From NCBI RefSeq assembly GCF_048403405.1, contig NZ_CP183129.1: 64,000 nt of DNA; one strand, given 5' to 3'. Below are positions 3,006 through 59,224 of this stretch, piece by piece. Made by a program: the position numbers and the translations under genes. The first letter of the stretch is position 1. Every line of letters starts with the position of its first letter. The notes under the pieces were generated by a model. It was given only the letters and a program-made list of their open reading frames with translations, was not told where the DNA came from and did not search any database. This DNA comes from Escherichia coli (GTDB lineage Bacteria > Pseudomonadota > Gammaproteobacteria > Enterobacterales > Enterobacteriaceae).

Positions 3006-5132
<2,127 letters not shown>

Positions 5133-11183: not shown

Positions 11184-13112
<1,929 letters not shown>

Positions 13113-18809: not shown

Positions 18810-19310
<501 letters not shown>

Positions 19311-32660: not shown

Positions 32661-34202
<1,542 letters not shown>

Positions 34203-34270
34203 CCTTAAAGAACTGTACTTTGCAGTGCTCACACAGATTGTCTGATGAAAATGAGCAGTAAAACCTCTAC

Positions 34271-34347
<77 letters not shown>

Positions 34348-34389
34348 AATTTGCACCGCAAATTTGAAGAGGTTTTAACTACATGTTAT

Positions 34390-34465
34390 GGGGCTATAGC
34401 TCAGCTGGGAGAGCGCCTGCTTTGCACGCAGGAGGTCTGCGGTTCGATCCCGCATAGCTCCACCA
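34390..34465 (+). tRNA. alaU: tRNA-Ala (TGC)
   Basis: ggggctatagctcagctgggagagcgcctgctttgcacgcaggaggtctgcggttcgatcccgcatagctccacca. Confidence 0.97.
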
Positions 34466-34648
34466 TCTCTGTAGTGATTAAATAAAAAATACTTCAGAGT
34501 GTACCTGCAAAGGTTCACTGCGAAGTTTTGCTCTTTAAAAATCTGGATCAAGCTGAAAATTGAAACACTGAACAACGAAAGTTGTTCGTGAGTCTCTCAA
34601 ATTTTCGCAACACGATGATGAATCGAAAGAAACATCTTCGGGTTGTGA

Positions 34649-37550
<2,902 letters not shown>

Positions 37551-37642
37551 ACAACGCCGAAGATGTTTTGGCGGATGAGAGAAGATTTTCAGCCTGATAC
37601 AGATTAACTCAGAACGCAGAAGCGGTCTGATGAAACAGAATT

Positions 37643-37762
37643 TGCCTGGCGGCCGTAGCGCGGTGGTCCCACCTGACCCCATGCCGAACTCAGAAGTGAA
37701 ACGCCGTAGCGCCGATGGTAGTGTGGGGTCTCCCCATGCGAGAGTAGGGAACTGCCAGGCAT
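37643..37762 (+). rRNA. rrfD: 5S ribosomal RNA
   Basis: tgcctggcggccgtagcgcggtggtcccacctgaccccatgccgaactcagaagtgaaacgccgtagcgccgatggtagtgtggggtctccccatgcgagagtagggaactgccaggcat. Confidence 0.97.
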
Positions 37763-37774
37763 CAAATTTAGCGT

Positions 37775-37850
37775 GCTGATATGGCTCAGTTGGTAGAGCG
37801 CACCCTTGGTAAGGGTGAGGTCCCCAGTTCGACTCTGGGTATCAGCACCA
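37775..37850 (+). tRNA. thrV: tRNA-Thr (GGT)
   Basis: gctgatatggctcagttggtagagcgcacccttggtaagggtgaggtccccagttcgactctgggtatcagcacca between the two 5S genes. Confidence 0.97.
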
Positions 37851-37887
37851 CTTTTTAGGTTAAAGTTCGGCAGATTAGAAAAGAATT

Positions 37888-38007
37888 TGTCTGGCGGCAG
37901 TAGCGCGGTGGTCCCACCTGACCCCATGCCGAACTCAGAAGTGAAACGCCGTAGCGCCGATGGTAGTGTGGGGTCTCCCCATGCGAGAGTAGGGAACTGC
38001 CAGACAT
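37888..38007 (+). rRNA. rrfF: 5S ribosomal RNA (second copy)
   Basis: Near-identical to the first 5S with tgtctggcggcag... variant start; a duplicated 5S is the hallmark of the rrnD operon. Confidence 0.96.
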
Positions 38008-56196: not shown

Positions 56197-56457
56197 ATGC
56201 CGATTCTGACGCATGAAATAAACAATTATTTTGATCAATTCGGACTTCATGATATTGCTTCAATGCCTACCACTCAGTACCGTCAGGCCCTTGCAAATGG
56301 TGGTTTACTGTGGATTGATCATCATGATTTTATTCGTAGCACGCTATCAGATGAAATCCTTGCAACAAATCAAGAGCAGGTTAATGTTTTGATTGAGCAT
56401 TTGCAGGTTTTAAGGAAAAAAATGCCACTACCTCCTAATTGGATGAGTGAGAAATGA
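56197..56457 (+). CDS. hypothetical protein
   Basis: 86 aa; AT-rich; convergent with the minus-strand cargo pair. Confidence 0.5.
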   Translation: MPILTHEINNYFDQFGLHDIASMPTTQYRQALANGGLLWIDHHDFIRSTLSDEILATNQEQVNVLIEHLQVLRKKMPLPPNWMSEK

Positions 56458-56491
56458 ATTATATGGCCTGGCTCTTTGCCAGGCCATATAC

Positions 56492-57001
56492 TCAAAGCAT
56501 TGTTAACAAGGCGGACGCACCAGCACCAACGAGACTGGCTACCGTACTATTATTTAGTAAATCCTTAAGCAAATTTTTTGCCTGAGGATCTTGTGATTGA
56601 GAAACTTTTTCAACAAGTTCAGTTATGCTGAGATTTACAATAAGATTGTTATGCTCACCGAGTTGAACCTGTGTACCGGATATGTTACCAATGTTAAATG
56701 TATTTTGGCTAGATTGTTTTGGTTTATGTTCATTAGCAGTCAGATTCTCGACTTTTAATGTAAGCATGTGAGGGTGATTAGTACCAACATTGAGTGTACC
56801 TCCTGGTAAAAATGACATATCAATTACTTTTAATATTATTTCCCCCTTCCCTAGTTTTTGAGTGATTTCATCTCCAATATTAATATCTGGTTCTTCAGTA
56901 TAAGGGATTAGCACTTTTTTTTCAGCTGAGTTTCTTTTCCCCTTGTATTCAACTCCTGCGATTGTGAATTTTTCTGGATATGCCATGACGTTAAGATCCA
57001 T
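56492..57001 (-). CDS. hypothetical cargo protein B (shared C-terminal module, hydrophobic C-terminal tail)
   Basis: 169 aa in markedly AT-rich DNA; C-terminus QNTFNIGNISGTQVQLGEHNNLIVNLSITELVEK...AKNLLKDLLNNSTVASLVGAGASALLTML parallels the C-terminus of the upstream gene. Confidence 0.7.
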   Translation of the reverse strand: MDLNVMAYPEKFTIAGVEYKGKRNSAEKKVLIPYTEEPDINIGDEITQKLGKGEIILKVIDMSFLPGGTLNVGTNHPHMLTLKVENLTANEHKPKQSSQNTFNIGNISGTQVQLGEHNNLIVNLSITELVEKVSQSQDPQAKNLLKDLLNNSTVASLVGAGASALLTML

Positions 57002-57030
57002 TATGTTGCTCCTCGTGATCGCTTTTGCGT

Positions 57031-57807
57031 TTAACTAGTAGATTTGAAAGTGTATTTTGTCTGTGTGTTAAGGTTTGATATTAGAGCTTCATAGTTTTCT
57101 TTACTCAGTAAGTTTTTTGAGTAGGCCTTCTTAAGAAGGTTTTTTGAGAGAGTAATAATTTCTTTTTCACCAGTTGATGCAATTTTTGAGAAGAACTCAG
57201 AGAGCTCTTGTATATTAATATTGTTATTTGTACCAAGTTGTACGTATTGGCTATTTACAGTAGCTATGTTGAATATGTTTTGTTTTGGATGCGTTTTTTT
57301 TAGCTTTTCAATTTCAGCATGTTCTATGATTTTTTGAGAGATACTTTCAATATAACCACTAACGTCTTTTTTTTCTGGGAAGGAAAACCCATCACCTCTT
57401 AATATTTTATCTGTTTCGGCCATTTCATAGTAAAGCCTGCGAATCATCACAAGTAATAGTAATTTAGCCTCCTCGATTGACTCCTCTATTGAGAATTGAC
57501 ATTCAATTGCTAACGCGGAGGTCTGCTCTAAAACAATTTCTGAGTTATTTTCAATGTAAGGATTGATAAAACCATTCCAAAAAATTTGAACGGGAGTACC
57601 TTTAAATGCCAAACCTTGATAGCATATTTCTGTTCCATCATATGCAGTAACTTTCATGGGGGGGCCTGCATTGAAAAATCGCCATCTATGAATCAGTTTG
57701 GTTAATCTTTCGTCAATCTCCCGAACTAATTTATAAGTCCTTTTGAACAATGGGGATGGTCGCATCCCAGGAACAGCAAGAATTTCTTTTGTCACTTGAA
57801 TCTCCAT
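57031..57807 (-). CDS. hypothetical cargo protein A (shared C-terminal module)
   Basis: 258 aa uninterrupted ORF in AT-rich DNA (unlikely by chance); 29 bp upstream of protein B on the same strand; C-terminus QNIFNIATVNSQYVQLGTNNNINIQELSEFF...SKNLLKKAY. Confidence 0.7.
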   Translation of the reverse strand: MEIQVTKEILAVPGMRPSPLFKRTYKLVREIDERLTKLIHRWRFFNAGPPMKVTAYDGTEICYQGLAFKGTPVQIFWNGFINPYIENNSEIVLEQTSALAIECQFSIEESIEEAKLLLLVMIRRLYYEMAETDKILRGDGFSFPEKKDVSGYIESISQKIIEHAEIEKLKKTHPKQNIFNIATVNSQYVQLGTNNNINIQELSEFFSKIASTGEKEIITLSKNLLKKAYSKNLLSKENYEALISNLNTQTKYTFKSTS

Positions 57808-58054
57808 AGTTTATCAGCATTTTTGTAAATTATTTGTGTGTTAACATTCAAGACTGTTCGTAACAAAAATACCTTATTTACATCAATTTTTTGATCCATA
57901 TCTTAAATAGTGGCACTCAGACGTGAGCCGCCACTGTTGCCGTCCGATCCCCTGCGCGATGCCGGGTTGATCTGCGAGATGCCGAGAGTGTCGGGCGGCG
58001 CTCCCTCCGTGTTGGTTTCACGTCCTGAATCTTAACCAATACGAGAAAACCTTC

Positions 58055-59224
58055 ATGAAGAAATTAATCGAGCTCCGCCAGCAAAAAAACGCCCTGAAAA
58101 ACCAGATGCGATCCCTGCTGGAAAAAGCCGACAGTGAAAACCGCAGCCTGAACGATGACGAGGGCAAACAGTTTGATGAACTGCGTGCAAAAGCTGATTC
58201 CCTCGATACAGACATTTCCCGCCTCGAGTCTGTGGCTGATGAAGAACGCAGCAAGCCAGGAACGGGCATCCAGAAAGTATCATCTGATGAATTGCGTAAC
58301 TACATCGTAACCGGAGATGTGCGATCTCTGTCCACCAGCACTGACAGCGGCAGGGATGGCGGATATACCGTAATTCCTGAGCTTGATCGCGAAGTCATGC
58401 GCCAGCTACAGGATGACAGTGTTATGCGCGTGATCGCGACCGTGAAGACTGCAAAATCAAATGAGTTTCAGAAACTGGTTTCCACTGGCGGCGCAACTGT
58501 AGGACGAGGCACAGAAGGCAGCGCACGCAGTGAAACCAACACCCCGAAAATTGAACGCGTAACCATCAAGCTGAACCCGATCTACGCCTACCCGAAAACC
58601 ACGCAGGAAATCCTAGATTTTTCAGAGGTGGATATTCTGGGCTGGTTATCCTCCGAAATTGCCGACACGTTCGCCAGCACCGAAGAGGATGATTTTGTTA
58701 ATGGCAACGGTAACGGCAAGCCGAAAGGCTTCATGGCTTACACCCGTGCGGCGACCAGTGACAAAACCCGCGCTTTTGGCACCATTGAAAAAATGGTAGC
58801 GGCAAGTGGAACCGCCATTACAGCGGACGAACTGATCGACATTCTCTACAAGCTGAAAGCGAAATACCGCAAAAATGCCGTCTGGGTGATGAACTCGGGC
58901 ACGGCAGGGACACTACAGAAGCTGAAAAATGAGAACGGCGATTATATCTGGCGCGACAGCCTTAAAGAAGGTGCGCCGGATATGTTGCTTGGTCGTCCTG
59001 TTTACTGCCTGGAGTCCATGCCGGACATCGGCGCAGGAAAAGCACCGCTAGCGGTTGGCGATTTCAGTCGTGGTTATTTCATCGTTGATCATGTAACAGG
59101 GATTCGCACCCGACCGGACAACATTACTGAACCCGGATTCTACAAGGTCCACACGGATAAATATCTGGGCGGTGGTGTGGTGGATTCAAACGCCATCAAA
59201 ATTCTGGAAATGAAAGCTGGCTAG
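58055..59224 (+). CDS. major capsid protein, HK97-fold, with N-terminal scaffolding (delta) domain
   Basis: 389 aa; N-terminal coiled-coil MKKLIELRQQKNALKNQMRSLLEKADSENRSL..., then HK97-family capsid body (GKPKGFMAYT..., LLGRPVYCLESMPD...). Confidence 0.88.
   Translation: MKKLIELRQQKNALKNQMRSLLEKADSENRSLNDDEGKQFDELRAKADSLDTDISRLESVADEERSKPGTGIQKVSSDELRNYIVTGDVRSLSTSTDSGRDGGYTVIPELDREVMRQLQDDSVMRVIATVKTAKSNEFQKLVSTGGATVGRGTEGSARSETNTPKIERVTIKLNPIYAYPKTTQEILDFSEVDILGWLSSEIADTFASTEEDDFVNGNGNGKPKGFMAYTRAATSDKTRAFGTIEKMVAASGTAITADELIDILYKLKAKYRKNAVWVMNSGTAGTLQKLKNENGDYIWRDSLKEGAPDMLLGRPVYCLESMPDIGAGKAPLAVGDFSRGYFIVDHVTGIRTRPDNITEPGFYKVHTDKYLGGGVVDSNAIKILEMKAG

Follow-up and report, generated by a model that had tools for sequence, protein, structure and literature searches.

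A Candidate Leader RNA with Covarying Hairpins Precedes the Packaging Operon in One Lineage of cf-PICIs

Introduction

Attenuator leaders alternate between the pairings 1:2 and 3:4 on the one hand and 2:3 on the other, and the rpoS leader sequesters a ribosome-binding site (RBS) that is opened by anti-antisense pairing. The c4 RNA of P1 and P7 and the CI RNA of P4 are leader-encoded antisense (immunity) RNAs whose complementary target lies on the same leader transcript, upstream of the RBS. Stem-loops at the very 5′ terminus stabilize E. coli mRNAs such as ompA. Antiterminator RNAs of the put type work by way of the β′ zinc-binding domain of RNA polymerase. HK022 putL is about 70 nt long and forms two stem-loops just downstream of PL (PMC9378689), and the AlpA protein of Pseudomonas aeruginosa, a Q-like antiterminator, has a binding element of its own, GGGACG (PMC9371919).

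The element described here lies in a satellite of the cf-PICI type. Such islands are recognized by a packaging module of their own, the lack of tail and lysis genes, and a size of 10–18 kb, and their packaging operon is flanked on both sides by variable regions (10.1101/2025.02.11.637232). AlpA is required for their induction (10.1101/2025.02.11.637232 and other cf-PICI literature). We found no description of a promoter or leader of the packaging operon in the cf-PICI literature examined, including 10.1101/2025.02.11.637232, and a literature search for the exact leader sequences returned no relevant paper. Here we present a candidate for a new, undescribed family of cis-regulatory leader RNA, specific to one cf-PICI lineage, and compare it with the systems above, each of which it resembles in some respects and departs from in others.

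Results

The window, by which we mean the whole 64,000-nt stretch of Escherichia coli DNA that was analyzed (contig NZ_CP183129.1 of assembly GCF_048403405.1), contains an island with the gene order int, alpA, P4-type primase, AT-rich cargo, and then capsid, protease, portal, connector, HNH, TerS, and TerL. An identical island is annotated in RefSeq for E. coli D8, where it spans ∼14.3 kb between yhdJ and fis; E. coli MS6198 and MS 69-1 also carry it. The early half of the D8 island encodes a tyrosine integrase, a hypothetical protein, an HTH regulator, a YlcI/YnfO-family protein, an Icd-like protein, two small ORFs, and a DNA primase. The later half comprises three hypothetical cargo genes followed by the major capsid protein, an HK97 prohead protease, a portal, a head-tail connector, an HNH endonuclease, a small ORF, a P27-family TerS, and TerL; all packaging genes are thus present in the annotation, and tail and lysis genes are absent from it. 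The HTH protein of the island matches the Pfam family PF05930 (Phage_AlpA, E = 1.4e-14), and the primase is a 610-aa protein of the P4 type. With an integrase, alpA, and a replication module, packaging genes of its own, a size in the expected range, and neither tail nor lysis genes, the island has the makeup of a cf-PICI. P. aeruginosa AlpA is a larger protein, which we take to be unrelated in sequence to the island AlpA. The capsid gene heads the packaging operon, and the protease, portal, connector, HNH, TerS, and TerL genes run from there to the end of the window.

Several other parts of the window can be described briefly. The cargo (56197–57807, 35% GC) consists of three ORFs, one of 86 aa on the plus strand and two of 169 and 258 aa on the minus strand, none of which has a match in Pfam or PADLOC. 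They fill the variable slot in which cf-PICIs are said to carry defense genes; in other E. coli islands the same slot holds a PerC-family regulator, a ProQ/FinO-family protein, an SSB, or a DUF3775 protein. A 13-bp GC-containing hairpin at 56460–56490 (TATATGGCCTGGC...GCCAGGCCATATA), between the convergent cargo ORFs, resembles a bidirectional terminator and accounts for a weak Rfam match to AbsR25. Just 3′ of the primase gene, at 55897–55986, eight copies of a TGTTCAC(C) iteron occur in both orientations and give a spurious microRNA-like hairpin match in Rfam. We take this octamer to be the alpha-protein-binding iteron of P4 ori/crr, and by analogy the cluster is probably the replication origin of the island; other iterons seen in related islands are GTAGACA, GTGGAGA, and GTAGATA. 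The promoter region before the Icd-like/primase operon (53000–53080) contains repeated GTAAGAC/GTCTTAC/GTTACTTAC motifs around TTGACA and TATAAAT-like hexamers, and is a likely operator of the early operon. Upstream of the island lies ordinary chromosome, including a complete rRNA operon at 32661–38005 (16S, two tRNAs, 23S, 5S, tRNA, and a second 5S) and an Alpha_RBS element at 18875–18986.

The DNA between cargo and capsid gene carries the following features upstream of the GC-rich block.

57808–58054, intergenic interval between the minus-strand 258-aa ORF (57031–57807) and the capsid ATG at 58055
57821–57837, plus strand, invariant 17-mer box TTTTGTAAATTATTTGT, the upstream edge of the conserved module
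57838–57876, plus strand, variable spacer, form A: degenerate TGTTC-type direct repeats at 10–11-nt spacing, reading GTGTGTTAACATTCAAGACTGTTCGTAAC... in the window
57877–57882, plus strand, −35-like hexamer TTTACA (promoter scan, 9/12 matches, 16-nt spacer)
57899–57904, plus strand, −10-like hexamer TATCTT (promoter scan), with a putative transcription start at 57910 ± 1
58055–59224, plus strand, HK97-type major capsid gene (ORF list and RefSeq annotation of the identical D8 island)

The initial annotation had drawn attention to an abrupt change from AT-rich to GC-rich DNA ahead of the capsid gene, and the change is indeed pronounced. GC content is 23.5% in 57808–57909 and 65.8% in 57910–58020, with 69.8% in 57938–58000, as compared with 51% for the capsid gene and 35% for the cargo. 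The step at 57910, which amounts to +0.46 between adjacent 100-nt windows, is the largest of the whole 64,000 nt. Both strings that the annotation had quoted from the GC-rich DNA were located, ccgccactgttgccgtccgatcccctgcgcgatgccggg at 57929–57967 and gtcgggcggcgctccctccg at 57991–58010. Its suggestion that the step may mark a recombination junction is not quite borne out by the alignment of related islands: divergence of the cargo begins at ∼57820, not at 57910, and the conserved module extends ∼90 nt further upstream, to the box at 57821–57837. Because cargo divergence starts to the left of the box, we read the composition switch as the boundary between promoter and transcript, with the start site a predicted one, rather than as a recombination junction.

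The 60 nt upstream of HP1, the first leader hairpin, were aligned from 19 genera. The motifs TTT(A/T)C, at the −35 position, and T-A-T-x-T-T each lie at a fixed distance from HP1. The TTT of the −35 element is invariant across the 19 genera and TTTaC is conserved in form A, and in the −10 element T-12, A-11, T-10, T-8, and T-7 show little or no variation among genera. Since the two elements keep their distance from HP1, the predicted start at 57910 ± 1 coincides with the first base of HP1 and with the composition step. TTTACA-16-TATCTT, conserved in relatives, is by pattern match a predicted σ70-like promoter. A late promoter, which the initial annotation had offered as one possible reading of the GC-rich block, is only partly right: a conserved σ70-like −35/−10 pair exists, but it sits in the AT-rich DNA upstream. 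Because the block itself begins at the predicted +1, it would be transcribed leader and not promoter, and we assign it as the 5′ leader of the cf-PICI packaging-operon mRNA, with both start site and promoter predicted.

The box at the upstream edge is identical in five E. coli islands with differing upstream cargo. Of 109 distinct upstream regions drawn from many genera, 90 have it 87–88 nt ahead of HP1. No second copy of the box or of TCACGTCT was found elsewhere in the island beyond chance. In Xenorhabdus islands that have no GC block, a close variant of the box (TTTTGTAAATATTT) is likewise found ahead of the capsid gene. On the minus strand the box reads ACAAATAATTTACAAAA, which is −10-like and −35-like, and judging by this pattern it could also serve a divergent cargo promoter.

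Between box and promoter the sequence exists in two divergent forms, and only for this reason did BLAST lose 57838–57909. Form A (52 unique sequences) has about three TGTTCG/TGTTCC repeats at helical spacing, and these TGTTC repeats resemble the ori iteron TGTTCACC. Form B (37 unique sequences) has GTTTAC/GATTAC repeats and then a terminator-like GC hairpin CCCCTGTCTCTGACGGGGG-TTTTCTTT (e.g., at about 3800–3858 of locus L075, and in L005) that abuts the promoter, its T-run occupying the −35 position. The forms track neither AlpA, primase, nor integrase clusters, nor the ori iteron type. Two candidate regulators were rejected on such grounds: AlpA binding to the upstream direct repeats, as forms A and B do not follow AlpA clusters, and a primase or iteron-binding protein at the capsid promoter, as the same upstream forms occur in islands with the iterons GTAGACA, GTGGAGA, and CCTCTAC.

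Of 5,426 complete E. coli genomes, 164 carry the block from 57910 to the ATG at ≥90% identity, at 187 places in all. Among the matches listed, every full-length one lies where a “phage major capsid protein” gene starts; those partial matches in E. coli genomes that were examined are likewise cf-PICI leaders. The AT-rich sequence to the left of the block is common to only 22 of the 164 genomes, and a more divergent leader type occurs in roughly 20 further genomes. With the capsid protein as query, 80 loci were obtained from one genome per species; scanning IMG/VR for the HP1 core contributed another 120, and together these yielded about 90 distinct leaders. From these loci we recognize a module of ∼235 nt that is conserved ahead of the capsid gene in some 15 genera of Enterobacterales and that consists, in order, of the invariant 17-mer box, the σ70-like promoter, and three RNA hairpins beginning at the predicted +1. 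The distance from the HP1 start to the capsid ATG is 118–144 nt in every distinct leader. The architecture is present in Enterobacter, Pluralibacter, Phytobacter, Citrobacter, Kosakonia, Erwinia, Pantoea, Pectobacterium, Rosenbergiella, Serratia, Hafnia, Yersinia, Intestinirhabdus, Winslowiella, and one Xenorhabdus. Most Xenorhabdus and Photorhabdus lack it, as do Gilliamella, Frischella, and the Pasteurellaceae; in these the capsid gene is preceded by a short AT-rich leader or by an ORF. Because the related Xenorhabdus islands that lack the block carry a short AT-rich leader, we regard the block, on this comparison, as a discrete regulatory add-on.

A covariance model built from the MAFFT alignment of 34 leaders described below gives exactly one hit at each related locus, and every one of these is on the capsid strand. 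The capsid proteins across these genera are only 65–76% identical, while HP1 is nearly invariant. One could suppose that the block does nothing and is a recombination scar, a coding remnant, or a REP/ERIC-like dispersed repeat that is GC-rich by chance, and the region is indeed a mosaic in which promoter-spacer forms, HP1 types, and HP2 types occur in differing combinations. A functionless block is hardly credible, however, when its position and architecture are conserved over about 15 genera with compensatory changes, when each locus has one copy, and when no copy is found elsewhere in genomes outside cf-PICIs.

Known types of element were also considered. A 41-codon ORF that opens at the GTG of HP1 has variable stops and a variable frame relative to the ATG and is not coding. 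A cos site was rejected on the packaged 16.5-kb cf-PICI-like genome LR881103, which starts 22 nt upstream of terS and has its HP1 match internally, at 12126–12179. A REP/ERIC-type dispersed repeat was rejected on copy number and location, with one copy per locus, at the start of the capsid gene among the matches listed. No tRNA or tmRNA-like gene was found. Rfam 15 gave no match inside 57900–58054 even at E ≤ 10, none at gathering score in the island, and none in the main-type leader of L005.

Two decayed leader copies were seen. At about 976–1100 of L145 (IMGVR_UViG_2878873491_000003), HP1 and HP2 are fused to a fragment of a primase C-terminus and adjoin a P2-like integrase/repressor region, and in L182 the capsid ATG is mutated to ATA. 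Both are remnants of degraded islands.

The leader in the window is divided as follows.

57910–57934, plus strand, HP1, the 5′-terminal hairpin GUGGC-A-CUCA-GACG-UGAG-CC-GCCAC, almost invariant in sequence
57938–58000, plus strand, HP2, with a 12-bp base stem (57938–57949 with 57989–58000) and a variable interior
58001–58012, plus strand, linker (CUCCCUCCGUGU), pyrimidine-rich and predicted to be single-stranded
58013–58051, plus strand, HP3, with the 5′ arm UGGUUUCACGU at 58013–58023, a variable loop, and the 3′ arm ACGAGAAAACC at 58041–58051

The evidence for an RNA structure comes from 34 diverse leaders that were aligned with MAFFT on sequence only and scored at 31 proposed pairs. Standard pairs fill 94.4% of the cells in these 31 pairs, compared with 35–47% when the 3′ partners are slid by 1–3 columns. 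Compensatory double changes occur in 14 pairs (HP1, 3 of 9; HP2, 11 of 12; HP3, 0 of 10), and the observed pairing and covariation values were reached by none of 500 shuffles. The same picture was obtained with 84 distinct aligned leaders. The stems contain 73 G-U/U-G and only 19 A-C/C-A combinations, an excess that favors an RNA of the plus strand over a DNA cruciform or an RNA of the other strand. Folded as a single sequence, the window leader does modestly better than its shuffles, at z = −2.6 for the plus strand and z = −1.7 for the minus strand. Of the possibilities raised in the initial annotation, a structured RNA leader is thus the one that these data support well, through three hairpins, covariation, and a strand asymmetry toward the capsid strand; the folding and covariation analysis that it had called for finds the block both conserved and structured. 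With compensated pairs, on the sense strand, and before one gene family, the element classifies on alignment evidence as a structured cis-regulatory leader RNA.

The hairpins differ in how they are constrained. In HP1, 99.9% of cells are paired; by compensatory change, two outer pairs have gone from G-C to A-U and one inner pair from A-U to C-G. In HP2 the sequence varies freely and the pairing is kept: a closed hairpin folds in all 89 unique leaders, starting 0–3 nt past HP1, and all but one of the 12 base-stem pairs covary. The commonest HP2 subfamily is a three-way junction with two small hairpins that have GNRA-like loops, followed by AAAAA; within it, 93% of cells are paired and 10 pairs covary, two of them in P2b. 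The interior of HP2 in the window is a degenerate version of this junction, with a P2a-like hairpin at 57950–57966 and a P2b-like hairpin at 57972–57984. In nearly all leaders, HP2 and HP3 are separated by a C/U-rich tract of 13–20 nt, which most individual folds leave unpaired.

HP3 is paired in 97% of cells, with U-A to U-G as the only changes. Because no compensatory change is present, the HP3 helix is compatible with the alignment and not proven by it. Its 3′ arm, which is ACGGAAACC in most leaders and ACGAGAAAACC in the window, overlaps a weak SD-like GAG/GGA just before the ATG, and these are the sole SD-like bases there. In the E. coli-type leader of the window, an extra A weakens the canonical HP3, and the minimum-energy fold has a local hairpin, GUGUUGGUU / AACCAAUAC, instead.

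The leader might have no switching role at all. As a passive stabilizer or processing element, HP1 would shield the transcript from 5′-end-dependent decay by RppH and RNase E; HP2 would serve a structural purpose or act as an RNase III element. The absence of a 5′ single-stranded tail before HP1 at the predicted +1, the fixed distance between the −10 element and HP1, and the conservation of HP2 only as a stable helix would all fit. We nevertheless consider passive stabilization unlikely: a stabilizing hairpin needs no set sequence, whereas the loop, bulges, and stems of HP1 are invariant apart from compensatory changes, and the invariant HP3 arms and the complementarity described below would be left unexplained.

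An intrinsic terminator scan of 57900–58054 on the plus strand found none; HP1 is followed by UGUUGCC and HP2 by GCUCCCUCC. Another reading is processive antitermination of the put type, in which HP1 and HP2 would bind the elongating RNA polymerase and make it resist pausing and Rho-dependent or intrinsic termination over the ∼9-kb operon. Two adjacent stem-loops of about 90 nt directly 3′ of the promoter of a long operon have the layout reported for HK022 putL (PMC9378689), and a nearly invariant HP1 beside capsid proteins of 65–76% identity is expected if the partner is a conserved host machine. Leader antiterminator RNAs are also known in other mobile elements (PMC8191782, PMC11658703). The sequence and interior of HP2 are free to vary, though, while put function needs specific features of both stems (PMC9378689); no convincing intrinsic terminator was found within the packaging operon, no Rfam family matched, and neither the conservation of HP3 nor the complementarity and covariation between HP1 and HP3 would be explained. 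We therefore hold put-like antitermination to be improbable.

The complementarity between HP1 and HP3 involves two segments of the leader.

57920–57927, plus strand, segment 2 (GACGUGAG, also given as AGACGUGAGCC), the loop and 3′ half of HP1, complementary to segment 3
58017–58024, plus strand, segment 3 (UUCACGUC, also given as GGUUUCACGUC and GGUUUCACGUCU), part of the HP3 5′ arm, complementary to segment 2

The 2:3 pairing comprises 8 consecutive base pairs and is kept in 84 of 84 distinct leaders. Only one of the pairs varies, from U-A to G-C in six leaders of the Yersinia/Serratia type. That clade changes three positions together: an A in the HP1 5′ arm to C, a U in the HP1 3′ arm to G, and an A in the HP3 5′ arm to C (A57919C, U57924G, and A58020C in window positions). 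The triple change preserves the HP1 helix and the long-range helix alike. This 2:3 covariation is probably a single evolutionary event in one clade, as read from the alignment. Further HP1/HP3 variants were not found: IMG/VR, scanned with restricted IUPAC patterns, and one JGI metagenome scan gave only chance matches in unrelated GC-rich DNA. The duplex between HP1 and the HP3 region has an energy of −20 to −22 kcal/mol, which is reached by 0.4–6% of shuffles. With the 2:3 helix forced, the fold lies 3–10 kcal/mol above the minimum-energy one, so that the default is predicted to be HP1 plus HP3 with the ribosome-binding region paired, and a switch to the less stable fold would require a trigger. 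If segments 2 and 3 are each constrained by two partners, their invariance would be explained. The coordinated change in HP1 and HP3 suggests, from sequence comparison, an attenuator-like switch that frees the RBS.

The same bases could be read at the level of DNA. A regulator bound to inverted TCACGTC-type sites at +10 (in HP1) and about +108 (in HP3) would then repress or activate the promoter, and the hairpins would be by-products. The 7-mer TCACGTC does occur on opposite strands at both places, both copies become TCCCGTC in the Yersinia/Serratia type, and HP1 overlaps the start site, a typical position for an operator. We judge an operator very improbable, given that the distance between the sites varies by 26 bp without helical phasing and that HP1 is asymmetric, with an A bulge facing a CC bulge and a nonpalindromic GACG loop, so that it does not form a dyad. 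Only maintenance of the hairpin accounts for the A to C change in the HP1 5′ arm, HP2 has undergone massive compensatory evolution without sequence conservation, and the surplus of G-U over A-C combinations points to selection acting on the plus-strand RNA.

Discussion

We tentatively favor, at somewhat short of an even chance, the reading that the leader is an attenuator-like translational gate that acts in cis after transcription has started. In the default fold, segments 1:2 (HP1) and 3:4 (HP3) would be paired and the RBS occluded. Opening of HP1, for example by a factor acting on the invariant 5′ hairpin, would allow segment 2 (AGACGUGAGCC) to pair with segment 3 (GGUUUCACGUC), and this pairing would release segment 4, which contains the RBS. 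The single-stranded C/U linker may be a standby site for the 30S subunit. Capsid production would in this way be tied to induction of the satellite and not to promoter activity alone. Several observations weigh against the gate: the near-invariance of HP1 across genera would be just as well explained if a conserved host machine, for instance RNA polymerase, recognized it directly; HP3 lacks compensatory changes and the 2:3 covariation comes from one clade; the alternative fold is the less stable one; and in the leader of the window a different local hairpin makes up the minimum-energy fold.

A stronger version of the gate, which we find doubtful, is a true RNA switch or checkpoint in which an island-, helper-, or host-encoded protein or small RNA binds HP1, the 3′ half of HP1 is released to pair with the anti-RBS arm of HP3, and capsid translation is turned on. 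If it were true, the variants of HP1 and HP3 (main versus Yersinia/Serratia type) would represent specificity classes comparable to the immunity types of c4 RNA in P1 and P7, and satellites would use RNA to set the timing of their own morphogenesis or to insulate it, independently of transcription driven by AlpA.

Whichever mechanism applies, cf-PICIs make their own capsids and borrow only phage tails, and a probable promoter and a covarying leader RNA can now be located before the first packaging gene. The leader is carried by about 4% of complete E. coli genomes and by about 15 other Enterobacterales genera. It would offer a concrete and easily mutated control point for the timing of satellite capsid synthesis, and HP1 provides a compact marker for this cf-PICI lineage in genomes and viromes.

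Among known systems, the resemblance to HK022 putL and putR is one of position: as part of a cis-acting RNA, a pair of neighboring stem-loops comes immediately after the promoter of a long phage operon, and the sequence of one stem is under strong constraint (PMC9378689). HP1 and HP2, about 90 nt together, have the put layout, a likeness of layout only. Unlike put, the leader has an HP2 that is free to vary, adds an RBS-covering hairpin and the complementarity between HP1 and HP3, and has no evident terminators downstream. It also differs from the P. aeruginosa AlpA system, in that form A, the spacer form of the window, has no terminator. With the 5′ UTR hairpin of ompA it shares the placement of HP1 at the very 5′ end of the predicted transcript, but ompA-type hairpins are not sequence-specific and HP1 is.

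The c4 and CI RNAs offer a parallel in which a leader segment and its complementary target lie on one transcript, in a P4-like or satellite setting with an Icd-like protein, and in which specificity types differ by coordinated changes on both partners, as in the Yersinia/Serratia type, here at one covarying pair in one clade. The Rfam model for C4 antisense RNA has no match anywhere in the window. Unlike in c4 and CI, the target in the leader is the anti-RBS arm, so that pairing would activate and not repress. Attenuator and rpoS-type leaders likewise have four segments, of which the middle two pair either together or with the outer two, and a last helix that hides an expression signal. The leader departs from attenuators in having no leader peptide and in a last helix that hides an RBS and not a terminator. 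As modeled here, the leader would work most like attenuator-type or anti-antisense leaders.
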